Below are positions 1,577-13,070 of a stretch of DNA of 28,254 nt, piece by piece (positions within the stretch are counted from its first letter, which is position 1; every line of letters starts with the position of its first letter). Below the pieces are notes generated by a model. The model was not told the origin of the DNA and did no database searches. It was given only the letters and a program-made list of their open reading frames with translations. The stretch covers positions 1 through 28,254 of the forward strand of contig JACNFI010000095.1 in NCBI GenBank assembly GCA_014384665.1, given 5' to 3'. This stretch comes from Candidatus Cloacimonadota bacterium (GTDB taxonomy: Bacteria; Cloacimonadota; Cloacimonadia; JGIOTU-2). The position numbers and the translations under genes were made by a program.

Positions 1577-2992
1577 TTAAAATAAAAATTTATCCTTCGG
1601 GACTTGGTGACTTTGTGGCAAAGTTTTTATTGGATATTTTCCATCAAAACACGCATAGCAAAATTCTTTATTATTATCAACCAAATTTTTTAAATCTTCG
1701 ATAGTTAGATAACGCAGTGAATCTGCTCCCATATAATCTTTAATTTCTTCTACTGTTTTTTGATTTGCAATAAGCTCCTCACGAGTGGGTGTATCTATTC
1801 CATAGAAGCACGAGAATTTTACCATAGGAGAGCCAATTCTTATATGAACTTGTTTAGCACCATTTTTTCTAACCATTTTTACTAATTTACGAATTGTTGT
1901 TCCGCGAACAATAGAATCATCTACCAATGTAACAATTTTCCCTTTGAAATAATCAGGCAAGGCATTGAATTTTTGAGTGACACCTTCATCACGAATTGTT
2001 TGCTCTGGAACAATAAAAGTCCTTCCAACATAGTGATTTCTAATCAATCCAAAATTGAAATCCACTCCTAAACCTTTTGCATAACCAAGAGCAATGAAAT
2101 TACTTGAATCAGGAATTGGTATCACAATATCAGGAATATTACTTTCCTTTTCAGCAAGCTTTTGTCCAAGTTTTTCACGAAAATCATATACTTTATGGTT
2201 ATAAACTATACTATCAGGACGGGAGAAATATATCATTTCAAAAACACAGTGTGCATTGTGATTACTTGTGCGATAATTATTTGGATTTTGTGGAGTGCTC
2301 TTAAGCCCTTTTTCATCAACAATAAGTATTTCTGCAGGATTTATTTCTCGTATAAAATCAACATTTACAATATTTAGGCAGCAGGTTTCAGAAGCGAAAA
2401 CATAAGTATTATCTTTTTTTCCAATTATAAAAGGTCTATTTCCATAAGGATCTCGAAATGCATATATTTTATTTTTTATAAGCAACAATGTTGAATATGA
2501 GCCTTGAAAGTTTTGCATAATTTTTTTTATTGATTCTATGATTGACAATCCTTTTTTTATATGCCAGAAAACCAGATATTTTAATATCAATTCTCCATCG
2601 TTTTCTGATTCAAAGAATACACCTTGTTTTTCTAATTGCTTGCGAATATTAGAGTAATTTACGATATCTCCGTTACCTACTAAAGCAAAGCTTTGTCCAG
2701 AAAGTGTATTAAGAAGATAGGGTTGGGCATTATTTATGTTAGATTTTCCTTTTGTAGGATAACGAACATGTCCAATTGCTAATTTGCCATCCATTTTTTT
2801 CGATTTTTTTTCAGTAAATACTTCCTTAACCAAGCCCATTTCTTTTGTTATAGAAATTTTATTGCCATCAGAAACAGCGATTCCACAACTTTCTTGACCT
2901 CTATGTTGTTCAGCAAAAAGAGCATAAGCTGCAAGTTTGGCAGCATTTGTGTGTTTTTTGTCCTTTTGATAAATTCCAATTATTCCGCACAT
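1577..2992 (-). CDS. purF: amidophosphoribosyltransferase (glutamine PRPP amidotransferase)
   Basis: The 471-aa translation starts MCGIIGI, the N-terminal nucleophile Cys of Ntn glutamine amidotransferases. A PRTase-type PRPP-binding region (VTLVDDSIVRGTT) follows. The C-terminal cysteine-rich stretch (CYACFDGKYP) is consistent with an Fe-S-type PurF. Confidence 0.9.
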   Translation of the reverse strand: MCGIIGIYQKDKKHTNAAKLAAYALFAEQHRGQESCGIAVSDGNKISITKEMGLVKEVFTEKKSKKMDGKLAIGHVRYPTKGKSNINNAQPYLLNTLSGQSFALVGNGDIVNYSNIRKQLEKQGVFFESENDGELILKYLVFWHIKKGLSIIESIKKIMQNFQGSYSTLLLIKNKIYAFRDPYGNRPFIIGKKDNTYVFASETCCLNIVNVDFIREINPAEILIVDEKGLKSTPQNPNNYRTSNHNAHCVFEMIYFSRPDSIVYNHKVYDFREKLGQKLAEKESNIPDIVIPIPDSSNFIALGYAKGLGVDFNFGLIRNHYVGRTFIVPEQTIRDEGVTQKFNALPDYFKGKIVTLVDDSIVRGTTIRKLVKMVRKNGAKQVHIRIGSPMVKFSCFYGIDTPTREELIANQKTVEEIKDYMGADSLRYLTIEDLKNLVDNNKEFCYACFDGKYPIKTLPQSHQVPKDKFLF

Positions 2993-3021
2993 AATATTTT
3001 TTTAATTCTCTTCTGTGGGAA

Positions 3022-3252
3022 GGGCGTGAACGCCCTGATATCTTCTTCTGTTTTTCTTTTCCCAGCCATGAATGGCTGGGTTATTGACTATAAGGGCGTA
3101 AACGCCCCTTGTACATATTTTTTCCTTTTTCTCTCATAAAAAGGCATTCCGTAGCCCAGTCGTTTTTAACCCGTGAAATTCTATAAGGAATATTTCACTG
3201 GGTTATACGACTGGGATTATGATAGAATATGAAGGATACGCCGTTTACGGCG
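3022..3252. repeat. cluster of five GC-rich palindromic hairpins in the plsY-purF intergenic region
   Basis: Seen directly in the sequence: GGGCGTGAACGCCC (3022-3035), CCCAGCCATGAATGGCTGGG (3061-3080), GGGCGTAAACGCCCC (3094-3108), CCCAGTCG…CGACTGGG (3155-3216) enclosing an inner ACCCGTGAAAT…ATTTCACTGGGTT hairpin, and CGCCGTTTACGGCG (3239-3252). All are GC-rich islands in AT-rich spacer. Confidence 0.7.
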
Positions 3253-3912
3253 TTACCATAGCTTTTTCTCTTTGCCATTCATTAACCTTTTTATATTCTC
3301 TTTATGACGAAAAATAATTAAAATCATAATAAAAGCTGTCAATATTAAAAAAGGAAGCTCGTCAAAATTTGGTATGTTTTTTATTAATTCTGTGCCGAAA
3401 AATGTTATTACTGCAATCATAGATGCAAGAGATACATATCTAAAAATAATTAGTATTATTACAAAAGGAATTAAAGCATAAATAACAGGAACAGGAATTA
3501 TGTTTATAAAAGCACCGGCTCCAGTCGCAACACCTTTACCACCTTTGAACTTTAAAAAAATAGGAAATATATGACCTAACACTACAGAAATTCCAACTAT
3601 AATAATCAAAATTTGAAAAGTTTGAGTTCCTTTAATATTATTAAAGACATTTAAAATTGAAATATTGAATATATTCGTTGGACTTTCAAGAATACAGCGT
3701 CCAATTTGAACTGCAAAAAATCCTTTTAAAAAATCAAAAATAAGAGAGATGATACCCGGAATTACACCAATTACTCTAAATACATTGGTTGCACCAATAT
3801 TTTTACTTCCATAATTCCTGATATCAATTTTTTTAAGTATTTTCCCAAGAATAAAACCACTCGGTATAGCACCAAGTAGATAAGCAATTATGATTGCAAT
3901 AATAAATTTCAA
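3253..3912 (-). CDS. plsY: glycerol-3-phosphate acyltransferase PlsY (acyl-phosphate dependent)
   Basis: The 219-aa polytopic membrane protein has the GSKNIGATNVFR motif characteristic of PlsY/YgiH. It overlaps der by 4 nt, a conserved der-plsY linkage. Confidence 0.85.
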   Translation of the reverse strand: MKFIIAIIIAYLLGAIPSGFILGKILKKIDIRNYGSKNIGATNVFRVIGVIPGIISLIFDFLKGFFAVQIGRCILESPTNIFNISILNVFNNIKGTQTFQILIIIVGISVVLGHIFPIFLKFKGGKGVATGAGAFINIIPVPVIYALIPFVIILIIFRYVSLASMIAVITFFGTELIKNIPNFDELPFLILTAFIMILIIFRHKENIKRLMNGKEKKLW

Positions 3913-5231
3913 TTTTTTCTTCCTTTATATTTAAATCTTAATGTAACACCTTCAAATTTATATATTTCTCTTATTTGGTTATGAATATATCGTTTATAAT
4001 TTTCAGTAATTAATTTTGGATTATTAACACTAAACACAAATGTTGGAGGATGAACATTTGCTTCTGTGCAATAATAAAATTTAACATTTTTTTTTGATGG
4101 ATGGTGAGGAGCATATTTCTGAAATACTGATTGAAAAAATTGATTTAGTTTGCTGGTTGGAATTCTTAAGTTACTTTGTTCTTCAACATATAATATAAGT
4201 TCCAGAAGTTTATTGACTCTTTTTCCTGTTAATGCAGAAATAAATATAATTGGAGCATAGTTAATGAATCCCATTTCTTCCCTGATTTTTTGAATATATT
4301 TACTGGTTGTATCATTCTCTTTTGCTATAAGGTCCCATTTATTCACCACAATAATAATATCCTTATATTGGGATTGTGTATATTCTACTATTCGTTTATC
4401 TTGTAAAGAAATTTCTTCTTGGGCATCAAGCAATACTAAAACTATATCTGATGAGTTTATGCTTCGTAAACTACGTAGATTACTAAAATATTCAATGCCA
4501 AATTTCACTTTGCTCTTTTTCCGAAGTCCTGCAGTATCAATTATTGTCATAGGTCTTTCTTTATAGTTAAAATTGAGGTGTATAGAATCTCGTGTGGTTC
4601 CTGGAATTTCAGTAACAATTACTGCATTTTGACCAATGATTTTATTAACTAATGAAGACTTTCCTACATTTTGTTTTCCAACAACTGCGATTTTTATTGA
4701 TTCTTTATTTAATATATCATATTCAGATTTACCTGGTGGAATTTTTTCAACTACATTATCTAACAATTCACCAAAATTTCTTCCACTAATTGCAGAGATT
4801 CCAATTGGCTCTCCAAGACCTAAATTCAAGAAATCAAATAAATATAACTCATCTTTTTGATTATCTACTTTGTTTAAAACGAAAATTACTTTATCAAGGA
4901 TGGGAAATAATTTCTTTGTAATTTGCTCATCTGTTGTAGTTATTACCGTTTTGCAATCAAGAACAAAAATAATAATATCTGCTTCTTGAATTGCTATTTC
5001 TACTTGCAACTGAATTAACTGTTCCATTTCATCAAATGAGTTTGGCACCATCCCACCAGTATCTACAGCTATAAATGAATAACCTGACCATTCAGTTTCT
5101 TGATATTTTCTGTCTCTCGTAACACCGGATTCTTTATCAACTATTGCAAGTCTTTTTCGCACCATACGATTAAAAATGGTGGACTTTCCTACATTAGGTC
5201 TTCCGATTATCGCGACTATTGGGATTGACAT
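3909..5231 (-). CDS. der: ribosome-biogenesis GTPase Der (EngA), tandem GTPase domains plus a C-terminal KH-like domain
   Basis: The 440-aa translation has two P-loops (GRPNVGKST and GKQNVGKSS), DTAG/DTGG G3 motifs and NKVD/NKWD G4 motifs. This is the classic double-GTPase architecture. Confidence 0.9.
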   Translation of the reverse strand: MSIPIVAIIGRPNVGKSTIFNRMVRKRLAIVDKESGVTRDRKYQETEWSGYSFIAVDTGGMVPNSFDEMEQLIQLQVEIAIQEADIIIFVLDCKTVITTTDEQITKKLFPILDKVIFVLNKVDNQKDELYLFDFLNLGLGEPIGISAISGRNFGELLDNVVEKIPPGKSEYDILNKESIKIAVVGKQNVGKSSLVNKIIGQNAVIVTEIPGTTRDSIHLNFNYKERPMTIIDTAGLRKKSKVKFGIEYFSNLRSLRSINSSDIVLVLLDAQEEISLQDKRIVEYTQSQYKDIIIVVNKWDLIAKENDTTSKYIQKIREEMGFINYAPIIFISALTGKRVNKLLELILYVEEQSNLRIPTSKLNQFFQSVFQKYAPHHPSKKNVKFYYCTEANVHPPTFVFSVNNPKLITENYKRYIHNQIREIYKFEGVTLRFKYKGRKN

Positions 5232-6925: not shown

Positions 6926-7876
6926 ATGGTTTCATTATATCTAACCAGAAGAATTAAAAATTTATTAATAATAGGTGTTGTGTTTGTATCATTAGTTTTT
7001 GCACTTAAATTATCAAATTTTATGGAAGTCGTTCGTAAACCTTCAAATGATATGGGAAGTTCTCCAGAAAAAGCCGAGAAACTTTTTAATGATTTCAATT
7101 ATGATACTAAATTAAAATTGAAATTTGTTTCAAAAGATATTCAGGAAATTAAAAATAATGTTAATAAAATCCTATCTAATAATAACCTGAATGTATTATA
7201 TTCAATTAGAACTGGTAGTAATATCACAAAATTAGTTGAATTGCCATCTAAGAATTATAAAGAACTTCTATCTCCAATAATGAATTTGCCAAGTTTGGTT
7301 TCTGATGAATTGATAAAATCTCCAGAATCAGTTTCAATTGAAGGATTAAAGAGAAGATTACAAATTGCTGAAAAGAAAAGACAGGAAATACAGGAAAGAA
7401 TCGCTAATTCAAGAACTTACGATGTTAGATTAATGAATGCTCAAAAAAAACTGGATGAAACAATAGATGCTCTCTCAAAAGAATTAGAAGAAAAAGAGGA
7501 AAGAGAAAACTATATATTAGCAAAAATTGATATATCAAATGTAGTATTAAAAGGTGATATTGTTAAAAGTTCATTTAGGACATTTATTGGCACTTTTTTT
7601 CTATCAATTATTGTAATTTCTGTAGCATTAGTTATCATCTATTTTTTTATTGTAGGTTTTACAAAATTATTTGCCATACTTGGAATAAAAACTCGTCATG
7701 GATCCTCAAAATATGGTTCGTATGCAAGTGGTAAATATGGATATGGAAGATATTATAGTGGTTATGGTGGAGAAAAAAGAATTAAAAGAAAGTATATAAG
7801 AAGACCGGCTCATAAGGAAAAAGACTCAGAATCTCCAAAAACTAATAACGAAAGTAATTCTAATGGGAATAATTAG
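6926..7876 (+). CDS. hypothetical membrane-anchored coiled-coil protein with Gly/Tyr-rich basic C-terminal tail
   Basis: The 316-aa translation has an N-terminal TM/signal segment, a central charged coiled-coil (KRRLQIAEKKRQEIQERI…KELEEKEERE) and a second TM segment. The low-complexity tail reads GSSKYGSYASGKYGYGRYYSGYGGEKRIKRKYIRR. An RBS (TAGGAGATAAA) precedes the ATG. The family is not recognised. Confidence 0.6.
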   Translation: MVSLYLTRRIKNLLIIGVVFVSLVFALKLSNFMEVVRKPSNDMGSSPEKAEKLFNDFNYDTKLKLKFVSKDIQEIKNNVNKILSNNNLNVLYSIRTGSNITKLVELPSKNYKELLSPIMNLPSLVSDELIKSPESVSIEGLKRRLQIAEKKRQEIQERIANSRTYDVRLMNAQKKLDETIDALSKELEEKEERENYILAKIDISNVVLKGDIVKSSFRTFIGTFFLSIIVISVALVIIYFFIVGFTKLFAILGIKTRHGSSKYGSYASGKYGYGRYYSGYGGEKRIKRKYIRRPAHKEKDSESPKTNNESNSNGNN

Positions 7877-8039
7877 TGTCTGTCCATAAAGTTGGTATTA
7901 TAAAACCTTACGGATGGTTAAGCTTCCGTCTGGGCGCCGAGACCGATGCGAAACCTCCGTAATGGTTGTATGTCTTTGACCATTGCGAAGGTCTTCGACC
8001 ATTCGCAAGGTTTTCAGAGTTTACAGATAGGCACTAATT
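7874..8039. repeat. about 166-bp palindrome-rich intergenic element (E1) bounded by 8-bp inverted repeats AATTAGTG/CACTAATT
   Basis: The element has terminal AATTAGTG (7874-7881) and CACTAATT (8032-8039). Internal inverted repeats are CCTTACGGA/TCCGTAATGG and ACCATTGCGAAGG/ACCATTCGCAAGG. It shares a 21-nt GC-rich core, CCGTCTGGGCGCCGAGACCGA, identical with element E2 at 8338-8358. Confidence 0.55.
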
Positions 8040-8052
8040 AGAAGGCTTAATT

Positions 8053-8280
8053 ATGTTATCATGGTTGATTTGGATTGTTATTGGTCTTATACTAATTTTT
8101 ATTGAAATTTTTGCTCATAAGTTTATATTCTTAAGTATAGGAATTTCAGCAGTTATTACAGGAATAATAAATATATTAGGGATTAAGAATTTGATTGTAT
8201 TATTAATTATTTTTTTAATAATAGTATGTTTGAATATTCTTTTTTTAAGAAAGTTAATTACAAAATATTTAATACATTAA
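8053..8280 (+). CDS. small hydrophobic membrane protein (75 aa), hypothetical
   Basis: An ORF with two or three predicted TM helices. GAAGG lies 8 nt upstream of the ATG. It sits between the two related palindromic elements E1 and E2. Beyond ORF integrity and RBS spacing there is no evidence that it is expressed. Confidence 0.35.
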   Translation: MLSWLIWIVIGLILIFIEIFAHKFIFLSIGISAVITGIINILGIKNLIVLLIIFLIIVCLNILFLRKLITKYLIH

Positions 8281-8314
8281 ATAAAGTATATGATTTGATT
8301 AAAATTATTTATAG

Positions 8315-8515
8315 ATGAGTTCACTATAAAAACCCGTCCGTCTGGGCGCCGAGACCGACGAAACACACGAAATACTCGAAAATGGTTTGTGTAAATTCAG
8401 CCCGTCTGCCCGTCTCCCGATATATCGGGAGACGAGACAGAGGCGCCGAGCCTGATAATATACGCATGTATTTTTCGCGTATTTCGTGGGAGATACCTTT
8501 TTATAGTGAACTCAT
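8315..8515. mobile_element. MITE-like 201-bp nested palindromic element (E2) with perfect 18-bp terminal inverted repeats
   Basis: The TIRs are ATGAGTTCACTATAAAAA (8315-8332) and TTTTTATAGTGAACTCAT (8498-8515). Internal features are the inverted repeats CACGAAATAC/GTATTTCGTG, a central perfect hairpin CGTCTCCCGATATATCGGGAGACG, and duplicated GGCGCCGAG cores. It is GC-rich relative to its surroundings and shares a 21-nt core with E1. Confidence 0.6.
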
Positions 8516-8550
8516 AGATATTTAATTTATTCTATTTTGGAAGGAGAATA

Positions 8551-8808
8551 ATGCCAGAACATAAATCTTGTAAAAAAAGACTTCGTTCGGATGAAAAAAA
8601 AAGAGTTAGAAATAAATATGTAAAGAAAAGCATTAATACAATGATCAAAAAGCTTAAGAAAATTTCTAATAAAACTGAAATGGAAAAAATGTTACCAAAG
8701 ATCTATTCTTTACTTGATAAGGCAGTAAAAAAAGGTGTAATACACAAAAATAATGCTAATCGAAGAAAGTCTCGTTTAGCAAATTTTGTAAGCAAATTTG
8801 AGTTTTAA
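8551..8808 (+). CDS. rpsT: 30S ribosomal protein S20
   Basis: The 85-aa basic protein starts with SCKKRLRSDEKKRVRNK and ends with HKNNANRRKSRLANFV, matching S20 N- and C-terminal signatures. GGAAGGAGAATA precedes the ATG. Confidence 0.85.
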   Translation: MPEHKSCKKRLRSDEKKRVRNKYVKKSINTMIKKLKKISNKTEMEKMLPKIYSLLDKAVKKGVIHKNNANRRKSRLANFVSKFEF

Positions 8809-12752: not shown

Positions 12753-12768
12753 AGTTTTGAAAAAGCTT

Positions 12769-12786
12769 AACGGGGTAAACCCCGTT
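12769..12786. terminator. perfect palindrome AACGGGGTAAACCCCGTT, 17 nt after the peptidase stop; candidate terminator or hairpin-family member
   Basis: It is a 7-bp GC-rich stem with a 4-nt loop. The U-run is on the upstream (antisense) side only, so it is not a canonical intrinsic terminator on the plus strand. It belongs to the CCCCGT hairpin family seen elsewhere in the window. Confidence 0.4.
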
Positions 12787-12865
12787 AAATAATTCACATT
12801 GTCCATTCTCCGTAGCACTGCGAAGGATGAATTATATAATTATTATCCTCTTCGGTTTGTTATAT

Positions 12866-13035
12866 TTAACGGGGTAAACCGCAAAATAATAATTGATTTA
12901 ACCGCGAATATACGCGAATTTACCCCGTTAGATATTCAGTTTTTTATTTCTATCTCCACCCGGATAATAAAATTATCTAACAGGGTAGACACTAATTTTT
13001 TTCTCTTAATTAGCGAAAATTAGCGTTAATTAGTG
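12866..13035. repeat. intergenic repeat block: CCCCGT-family hairpins plus a tandem 10-mer (TTAATTAGCG/AAAATTAGCG/TTAATTAGTG)
   Basis: AACGGGGTAAACCGC (about 12868) pairs with GCGAATTTACCCCGTT (about 12915-12931). TTTACCCCGTTAGAT…ATCTAACAGGGTA (12922-12988) forms a hairpin followed by CACTAATTTTTTT. A tandem 10-bp ×3 lies at 13006-13035. The AATTAGTG/CACTAATT motif is shared with the E1 boundaries. Confidence 0.55.
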
Positions 13036-13070
13036 GTTGGCAGTAAATAGTTATAATTTTTTGCCAAAGA

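Follow-up and report, generated by a model that had tools for sequence, protein, structure and literature searches.

The window analyzed here, an entire 28,254-bp contig (31% GC) of a Cloacimonadota (Candidatus Cloacimonetes) metagenome-assembled genome (MAG), carries two short palindromic elements, E1 and E2, just upstream of rpsT, the gene for ribosomal protein S20. Read from 5' to 3', the locus comprises a 316-amino-acid (aa) gene, E1, an open reading frame (ORF) for a 75-aa membrane protein, E2, and rpsT. We consider it very likely that E1 and E2 are independent miniature inverted-repeat transposable elements (MITEs) from two unrelated families, each inserted in this lineage beside a native ORF, and that the GC-rich core found in both is a separate mobile module. 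The original prediction, made from the sequence alone, had described two related elements. The features it listed are all present and, apart from the recurrence of one motif, lie far beyond chance. On comparison, however, the termini and duplication lengths of the elements differ, their interiors are unrelated, and the only part in common is a 22-nt module, also seen in about 30 additional contexts. E1 and E2 are ordinary as MITEs go and add two new families in an uncultured phylum. Our literature search returned nothing on Cloacimonadota MITEs or on the 22-nt core sequence.

Two MITE families with different termini and target duplications

E2, a member of the "GAGTTCACTATAAAAA" terminal-repeat family, occupies 197 bp on the plus strand (8317 to 8513) and is delimited by its terminal repeats, its target-site duplication, and its family copies. 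The terminal repeats are perfect over 16 bp (8317 to 8332 and 8498 to 8513), and the element lies between two copies of the duplication ATAGAT (8311 to 8316 and 8514 to 8519). It had previously been bounded at 8315 to 8515 with 18-bp terminal repeats. The longer inverted repeat, ATGAGTTCACTATAAAAA/TTTTTATAGTGAACTCAT (8315 to 8332/8498 to 8515), is indeed perfect, but comparison with four other family copies shows that its outer AT is part of the duplication, and the boundaries move inward accordingly. The only ORFs inside E2 are 47 aa long, on both strands, and run across the palindrome.

Comparisons were made with loci fetched from relatives, designated by L numbers, of which all from L014 on were retrieved through an exact match to the 22-nt core. 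The left arm of E2 is 97 to 99% identical to copies in L016, L019, and L057, with a further copy in L033, and all four of these loci belong to MAG JAGMCF01. Another copy, in L017/L077, has E2-type terminal repeats around a different interior (L017). When the E2-type copies are delimited as GAGTTCAC...GTGAACTC, a perfect 6-bp direct repeat flanks 5 of 5 distinct copies, and the sequences are all different (ATAGAT, AAATAT, ATATAT, AATAAT, and AAGTAT). A different perfect repeat of constant length at each copy is the signature of staggered-cut transposition.

E1 (167 bp, 7872 to 8038, plus strand) belongs to the "ATTAGTGTCTGTCCGTAAAG" terminal-repeat family, as judged from its inverted repeat, its family copies, and its absence in relatives. 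Its terminal repeats are approximately 20 bp long (7872 to 7891 and 8019 to 8038), and a TA stands on either side (7870 to 7871 and 8039 to 8040), representing either a duplicated target or the base pair at the outer end of the terminal repeat. The motifs that had been proposed to bound E1, AATTAGTG (7871 to 7878) and CACTAATT (8032 to 8039), hold as the tips of 21-nt arms that are 81% complementary, but the proposed limits of 7874 and 8039 required correction. The ends of E1 read TA followed by ATTAGTGTCTGTCC(R)TAAAG and are found as inverted pairs around elements of 151 to 351 bp in L032, L049, L061, L069, and L070, the first four of which are all in MAG JAGMCF01. TA precedes 16 of the 16 E1-type terminal repeats found in the loci, and each of the six complete copies is TA flanked on both sides. 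Inside E1, we observe a tandem 19-nt direct repeat, GTCTTTGACCATTGCGAAG/GTCTTCGACCATTCGCAAG (7972 to 8009, plus strand), recovered by repeat search and with no counterpart in the other loci; the E1 interior likewise has no relative among the sampled loci.

The features found for E1 and E2 are thus those of MITEs, namely, terminal inverted repeats common to the family copies, small size, and the absence of coding capacity. The suggestion that they are nonautonomous transposable elements is borne out by their terminal repeats, by their duplications (6 bp for E2 and, putatively, TA for E1), by their multiple copies in related genomes, and by their absence at the orthologous site. Both had also been noted as strongly GC rich, and they do coincide with the two strongest noncoding GC islands of the window (7875 to 8021, peaking at 55%, and 8322 to 8499, peaking at 56%). 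Folding gives structures far more stable than those of shuffled sequence on the two strands, with z-scores of -6.2 and -7.4 for E1 and of -10.6 and -9.7 for E2.

In terms of mechanism, E2 would have been inserted by a cut-and-paste (DDE-type) transposase making 6-bp staggered cuts, by which ATAGAT would have been duplicated. Its family resembles DDE-transposase MITEs with duplications of fixed length in its perfect 16-bp repeats, its invariable 6-bp duplication, its AT-rich target, its size of approximately 140 to 200 bp, and its noncoding nature. A 6-bp duplication is compatible with several insertion sequence (IS) families, for example, IS481-like ones. E1 would be a TA-flanked insertion similar to the MITEs derived from IS630/Tc1-mariner elements, among whose bacterial, TA-duplicating representatives are the Correia/NEMIS elements of Neisseria and the pneumococcal RUP. 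E1 is like these in being noncoding, multicopy, located near coding regions, able to form a long hairpin, and bordered by TA on both sides; it differs in having no sequence similarity to any named family and in an interior that is a mosaic of nested small hairpin modules. The TAG stop codon of the upstream 316-aa ORF (7874 to 7876) sits within the left terminal repeat of E1, so that the insertion would now be providing this gene with its stop.

Insertions around a native gene

Orthologous loci were reached via S20 homologues with 66 to 79% identity. The gene order NAD kinase, CDP-alcohol phosphatidyltransferase, ~316-aa gene, rpsT, and C25 peptidase is kept in L004 to L013, and despite this shared order, both E1 and E2 are absent from all of these loci. 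In L004, L005, L006, and L011 to L013, the 75-aa ORF begins approximately 12 nt after the upstream gene and is followed by a short AT-rich region and then rpsT; its orthologues there are at least 57% identical and hold the same position. In L007 to L010, the 75-aa ORF is missing as well. In L004, L005, and L011, the upstream gene and the 75-aa ORF are not separated by E1; E2 is missing upstream of rpsT in all relatives examined; and nothing resembling E1 or E2 is found between the genes of L004, L007, L008, and L011. Because both elements are missing from relatives that share this gene order, most of which retain the ORF, we read the latter as a native, conserved resident gene and E1 and E2 as later, lineage-specific insertions.

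The small membrane-protein gene (8053 to 8280, plus strand) lies outside both elements. The arrangement of two repeat elements bracketing a small gene, with the same 22-mer in the same orientation, had raised the idea that the ORF was mobilized between them, that is, that E1, the ORF, and E2 form one composite mobile unit. This idea does not survive the comparison with relatives, in which the ORF occupies the same chromosomal position with neither element present. In addition, the elements have different terminal repeats and a separate target duplication each, and all-against-all clustering of the ORFs in the loci reveals no second copy of the 75-aa ORF elsewhere. We regard the probability of a composite unit as negligible.

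E2 and the putative rpsT promoter

The position of E2 suggests an effect on the expression of rpsT (8551 to 8808, plus strand; Pfam PF01649, E = 1.4e-24), whose start codon follows the end of E2 by 37 nt. On the upstream side of E2, TTGATT (8295 to 8300, plus strand) is a putative -35 box of the ancestral rpsT promoter, aligning with TTGACA upstream of rpsT in L004 and L007/L008. On the downstream side, TTTAAT (8521 to 8526, plus strand), read directly from the sequence, is the putative -10 box. Removal of E2 together with one copy of its duplication, again by reading the sequence, yields TTGATT-N17-TTTAAT. Since this restores a promoter-like arrangement whose -35 box aligns with that of the relatives, E2 probably split the spacer of the rpsT promoter and separated its -35 from its -10 box, and we propose that it landed within this probable spacer. 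A simple scan found no significant sigma-70-like site between E2 and the rpsT start, and because of this absence, rpsT is most likely transcribed through E2. Known bacterial MITEs are often cotranscribed with neighboring genes and alter their expression (PMC3733652).

An alternative reading, also raised in the original prediction, is that E2, E1, or both are cis-regulatory structured RNAs for rpsT, such as a leader or a riboswitch-like element. The very stable folds, with z-scores down to -10.6, are what such an RNA would show, and the short distance to the start codon without an intervening promoter-like site means that E2 is probably part of the rpsT transcript. Against this, no Rfam family is matched, even at E = 10: a scan of the window at gathering thresholds and a permissive scan of positions 7700 to 8700 returned only a chance microRNA match (E = 9.7). 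Nothing is conserved upstream of rpsT, where both elements are missing in every relative examined, and these sequences are also found at unrelated loci, facing either way with respect to the genes. E2 moreover has a 6-bp target duplication. A regulatory RNA had been expected to be single copy and deeply conserved at this locus, and the opposite is found in the related genomes. A leader RNA as the origin of these elements is accordingly very improbable; a secondary effect on the stability or processing of the rpsT mRNA would be a consequence of the insertion and not the origin of the element.

A 22-nt unit shared by E1 and E2

The core shared by E1 and E2, first noted as 21 nt long, is an exact match of 22 nt, TCCGTCTGGGCGCCGAGACCGA, present in the same orientation on the plus strand of both elements. 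In E1 (7925 to 7946), it forms the tip of an internal hairpin with arms at 7903 to 7919 and 7951 to 7967, and in E2 (8337 to 8358), it lies in the left arm as a side hairpin. None of 100 shuffles gave any such match, even when three mismatches were allowed. The unit is an imperfect palindrome, TCCGTCTG-GGCGCC-GAGACCGA, predicted to fold into a GTCT/AGAC stem with C.C and G.G mismatches.

A scan for the core 20-mer with one genome per species returned 58 stretches. Four low-GC Cloacimonadota MAGs account for approximately 37 of these, with JAGMCF01 contributing about 23 and CAYNOU01 contributing 9; the remaining ones, in genomes of 52 to 73% GC, are best read as chance matches. A metagenome scan returned 21 stretches, mostly from the same species as MAG CAYNOU01. 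Viral contigs gave no match for the core or for either terminal repeat. In at least four Cloacimonadota genomes, we find the 22-nt unit in 31 distinct flank contexts. Among them are both MITE families, where the unit lies in arms as well as at tips, tandem TTNGTTCGTG decamers that shortly precede the start of a gene, a pseudogene resembling tRNA-Asp, the loop of a CTCCTTCTCC/GGAGAAGGAG hairpin, and the tail of a repetitive extragenic palindrome (REP) beside a gene for a REP-associated tyrosine transposase (RAYT). Intergenic positions account for 32 of 36 copies, and orientation to the flanking genes is mixed (approximately 15 same and 10 opposite).

Evidence for mobility comes from five sets of filled and empty paralogous sites, in which the sole difference is a stretch of exactly 22 nt; its boundaries are defined to within 1 nt, and no target duplication is seen. 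A sixth case is the RAYT locus of L036, where the unit follows CTGAACCAGCAG in the upstream REP and is not present in the two downstream copies. In approximately one-third of the unit contexts, the sequences on either side pair into a stem of 5 bp or more directly next to the unit, compared to 9.5% for permuted flank pairs, with only about five of these contexts being independent. The GC-rich core thus appears not to derive from a common ancestor of E1 and E2 and instead to be a separate, very small mobile module.

Several points weigh against the reading of E1 and E2 as independent MITEs that host a mobile core. For the MITEs, the multicopy evidence comes from related genomes, the genome of the window itself being represented by one 28-kb contig, and the sole hint of a second E2 copy in the species of the window is the assembly L002 (see below). 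TA is self-complementary, so a TA duplication and a longer terminal repeat are indistinguishable for E1, and an empty E1 site close enough for exact mapping was not found; an automated search of the fetched loci gave no empty sites for E1- or E2-type copies. The search for a cognate transposase that the original prediction had proposed was negative as well: in approximately 0.5 Mb of related Cloacimonadota sequence, no autonomous IS carries either terminal-repeat pair, and all repeat pairs span 351 bp or less. For the core, its sequence invariance is partly an artifact of retrieval by exact match and hence overstated, variant and split forms being at least as common as exact ones in the flanks of the fetched loci. 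No core-less sibling of the same host was found for the exact units in E1 and in the left arm of E2, whose status as insertions is suggested by analogy with the other contexts. Finally, no enzyme is linked to the 22-nt unit, and all-against-all clustering of the ORFs around the units reveals no recurrent one.

Nesting of units at the GGCGCC center

The center of E2, previously described as a perfect 10-bp hairpin, does form a hairpin, but the perfect palindrome is longer, with arms of 12 plus 12 nt (CGTCTCCCGATA/TATCGGGAGACG, 8411 to 8434). Comparison of the family copies resolves this region into a series. In L019 and L057, the center is free of inserts, AAATTCAG being directly followed by TAATAT. 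L016, L033, and L002 carry an intact 22-nt variant of the unit, CCCGTCTGGGCGCCGAGCCTGA, at the palindrome tip and lack the 33-nt insert. The window has this 22-nt variant plus a 33-nt unit. In the window, the variant unit, CCCGTCTG/GGCGCCGAGCCTGA, is a second-level insert at the palindrome tip (8401 to 8455, plus strand) and is split between 8408 and 8442 by a third-level insert of 33 nt, CCCGTCTCCCGATATATCGGGAGACGAGACAGA (8409 to 8441, plus strand), which stands exactly between CCCGTCTG and the central GGCGCC and holds the 12-plus-12 palindrome. Read in this way, the center of E2 is a three-level nest of units.

Such nesting is not confined to E2. The 55-nt composite (8401 to 8455) is 95% identical to a sequence in an unrelated context (L081, 2464 to 2521), and the 33-nt unit recurs with one mismatch in L081/L041, where it takes the equivalent place in a different core; in L085 and L056, this place is occupied by other units. 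Inserts directly 3' of GGCGCC are seen in four further contexts (L033, L052/L091, and two in L049). The 481 kb examined contain 76 GGCGCC hexamers; intact cores account for 57 of these, and split cores, with an insert directly on one side, account for at least 9 more. In the nested units, different inner hairpins are enclosed by common ends, CCGTCT ... GCCGAGAC(N)GA, a grammar that can be written CCGTCT-hairpin-GCCGAGACNGA.

A small hairpin of the form (T)CCCGA-N(2-7)-TCGGG(A) occurs 79 times in approximately 480 kb of Cloacimonadota loci, for example, at 8416 to 8429 of the window, at position 3017 of L071, and at position 5730 of L060. It sometimes has a 5' GTAG (GTAGTCCCGATTGTATCGGGAC), like a GTAG-tagged REP, and is nested in both E1-type and E2-type elements; in E1-type elements, the GTAG-tagged hairpins have the form GTAG-TCCCGAT..ATCGGGAC.

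How the unit may move

Our best guess is that the unit is moved in trans by a structure-specific mechanism acting on folded single strands, because it shows no target duplication, frequently lies beside a stem formed by its flanks, and has fixed insertion points at the GGCGCC borders. The unit would also act as a target, with units of the same grammar being inserted immediately beside its central GGCGCC. The units may, then, constitute an autonomous class of ultrasmall, self-nesting mobile DNA in Cloacimonadota that has no linked transposase, leaves no duplication, often enters beside a stem built from the flanks, and is site specific at its own GGCGCC borders, a proposal we put forward tentatively and rate at somewhat less than an even chance.

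Searches for linked enzymes by tblastn used IS200 and RAYT queries, serving as a lead only, followed by real Cloacimonadota RAYTs. They returned two RAYT families and one tandem IS200 pair, and no further Y1 transposase was found near any unit. The IS200 pair consists of two tandem, near-identical IS200-family TnpA genes (142 and 147 aa; HUH motif HVHLL) at 1989 to 3171 of L064, approximately 4 kb from a 22-nt unit. The only ORFs that recur around the loci are small ones with a GIY-YIG nuclease domain (approximately 84 aa), present in five loci (L004, 83 to 337; L006, 128 to 382; L011, 443 to 604; L061, ~3030 to 3280; and L063), of which only L061 and L063 contain the unit. At the rpsT locus of relatives, the GIY-YIG ORF lies just upstream of the NAD kinase gene, a place where the window has none.

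The presence of RAYT genes leads to a different explanation, in which the 22-nt unit is a strict REP moved as a single-stranded hairpin by a RAYT of the HUH/Y1 class and in which E1 and E2 are mosaics resembling bacterial interspersed mosaic elements (BIMEs). Short GC-rich imperfect palindromes in intergenic DNA, with RAYT genes in the same genomes, are indeed what REPs, REPINs (REP doublets forming hairpins), and BIMEs have in common with the unit (PMC3733652; PMC3116915), which is a 22-nt imperfect GC-rich palindrome, mostly intergenic, found in both orientations, and free of target duplications. The RAYT genes are bona fide (NCBIfam NF047646 scores of 88 and 109 bits against a cutoff of 80), in L036 the RAYT gene has a unit 50 nt upstream of it, and GTAG-tagged hairpins are likewise nested in E1-type elements. 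Some REP families are regularly inserted within longer palindromes, and there are CGTC REPs without a dedicated transposase (PMC3733652); both traits are paralleled by the 22-nt unit.

However, every RAYT examined (two families in five genomes; L036, L060, L093/L094, L097, and L101) is flanked by its own unrelated hairpins, GGTTCAGGTAACATACCTGAACC or CTTTACCAAGCCCCAGCTTGGTAAAG, and the unit in L036 is an insert within a REP, missing from the two downstream copies. Tagged REPs have an unpaired GTAG or CGTC tag at one end, a stem of 8 to 9 bp, a loop of 4 to 5 nt, and a short tail (PMC3733652). The unit has neither an unpaired tag nor the 8- to 9-bp stem or the CCA tail of tagged REPs; in its predicted hairpin, CGTC is base paired with GAC(C)G, the loop differs as well, and the units are mostly singletons instead of head-to-head dimers. 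Its exact copies number in the tens, not the hundreds. The 6-bp duplication of E2 is not HUH chemistry, and the host elements, at least, are therefore not BIMEs. Taken together, we consider a RAYT-mobilized REP unlikely.

The RAYT loci themselves have REPtron-like hairpin flanks (L036, 5950 to 6900; L060, 5700 to 6900; L093/L094; L097; and L101, approximately 2800 to 3960), formed by GGTTCAGGTAACATACCTGAACCAGCAG plus GCTGGTTCAATTTTGTAAATTGAACC in L036 and by CTTTACCAAGCCCCAGCTTGGTAAAG in the other RAYT loci. Beside the RAYT gene of L060, there is also a 24-nt tandem array (ATATATCCTCATTACCAAGCCCCA) that contains a run of N.

It is also conceivable that the 22-mer does not move and is instead a protein-binding or recombination site with 8-nt arms and a 6-bp palindromic center, similar to dif or lox, that is kept by selection, its patchy occurrence being due to gene conversion or deletion. 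Its near-perfect dyad, TCCGTCTG-GGCGCC-rc(TCGGTCTC), in which rc denotes the reverse complement, would fit such a site, as would its strong conservation across at least four species and the location of the extra inserts exactly at the two borders of the 6-bp center, where a tyrosine recombinase would cut. This conservation is inflated by the exact-match retrieval, though, and the contexts are very heterogeneous (tandem decamers, a tRNA-like pseudogene, MITE arms, a MITE tip, and a REP tail), with paralogous sites differing solely by the 22 nt. An insert produced by conservative recombination would have a hybrid site on each side, which is not observed. A purely functional, immobile site is in our view distinctly improbable.

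Two further origins of the insertion junctions were considered and dropped. Restriction sites (GAGACC, of the BsaI type, or GGCGCC) would, by our own reasoning, give predicted cuts that do not match the insert borders. Conservative insertion by a tyrosine recombinase was set aside on the grounds that the inserts are not flanked by two hybrid sites.

Functionally, the 22-nt unit seems most like the small dispersed repeats (SDRs) of Nostoc. Elhai et al. reportedly described in 2008 eight such repeats in Nostoc/Anabaena (SDR1 to SDR8), of 21 to 27 nt, as "very small mobile repeated elements." The unit shares with what is said of them a hairpin of 21 to 27 nt, restriction to a single clade, and occurrence in MITEs and tandem short repeats, as well as self-nesting, a fixed position in a short GC palindrome, the lack of a known enzyme, and the absence of a duplication. 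To our knowledge, mobile units so small have been reported essentially only from heterocystous cyanobacteria, and the mechanism was never worked out. For SDR5, the insertion point within the HIP1 palindrome is fixed (PMC4390886). In contrast to the Nostoc repeats, the units described here come from Cloacimonadota and not from Cyanobacteria, the difference in phylum making homology unlikely, are probably unrelated in sequence, number in the tens, and have a variable inner hairpin between common ends, CCGTCT ... GCCGAGACNGA, and their GGCGCC target belongs to the unit itself instead of being an octamer iterated genome-wide.

If the proposed class of mobile units is real, the cyanobacterial SDRs would no longer be the sole example of mobile elements of approximately 20 to 35 nt but would be joined by a second, independent one, which would point toward a structure-specific activity that nicks and joins single strands or toward an RNA-templated one. 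A second system in an unrelated phylum, with a very clean sequence signature, many filled and empty pairs, and abundant metagenomic population data, would open the question of what moves a 22-nt hairpin to direct testing.

Assemblies, neighboring genes, and other repeats

The region reads identically in the window, L001, and L003, three assemblies that are independent of one another. L002 and L003, short-read assemblies of this species that were likewise made independently, begin within E2, with position 1 of L002 corresponding to window position 8392 and position 1 of L003 to 8371. As both of these end inside E2, this indicates that the nested palindromes fragment or scramble short-read assemblies. 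L002 starts near the center of the E2 palindrome and differs from the window by four single-nucleotide polymorphisms and a 33-nt insertion/deletion, all within E2, and the following 3.3 kb are identical. L002 was at first taken as a strain polymorphism for the 33-nt insert and was downgraded on account of this clustering; the assembler may have joined it to a second E2 copy, in which case the polymorphism would not be real.

With regard to the neighboring genes, the 316-aa gene just upstream of E1 (6926 to 7876) has no assigned function, the 75-aa ORF has no Pfam match, and the window contains no tRNA or transfer-messenger RNA genes. In L061 (2700 to 3400, minus strand), two incomplete copies resembling tRNA-Asp come before a true tRNA-Asp. 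In these copies, the anticodon arm is replaced by the hairpin TCCCGACAGGTCGGGA, and the small GIY-YIG ORF is located between them. One of these copies has a 22-nt unit just after the TCCCGACAGGTCGGGA hairpin, the other has none, and ARAGORN calls the true tRNA only.

The motif AATTAGTG had also been reported to recur at 12990 to 13035. The recurrence is real but marginal, with six occurrences in the window against 2.06 expected, a number reached by 2 of 100 shuffles, and the region belongs to a repeat landscape different from that of E1 and E2. Upstream of the methylmalonyl-coenzyme A mutase gene (12753 to 13070), we observe approximately five copies of another repeat, TATTTAACGGGGTAAACC, in alternating orientation, followed by three tandem decamers, TTAATTAGCG, AAAATTAGCG, and TTAATTAGTG. 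Comparable tandem decamers precede genes in relatives, namely, three copies of TTNGTTCGTG in L056/L057 and GTTAACTGGTTAATT in L026/L052.

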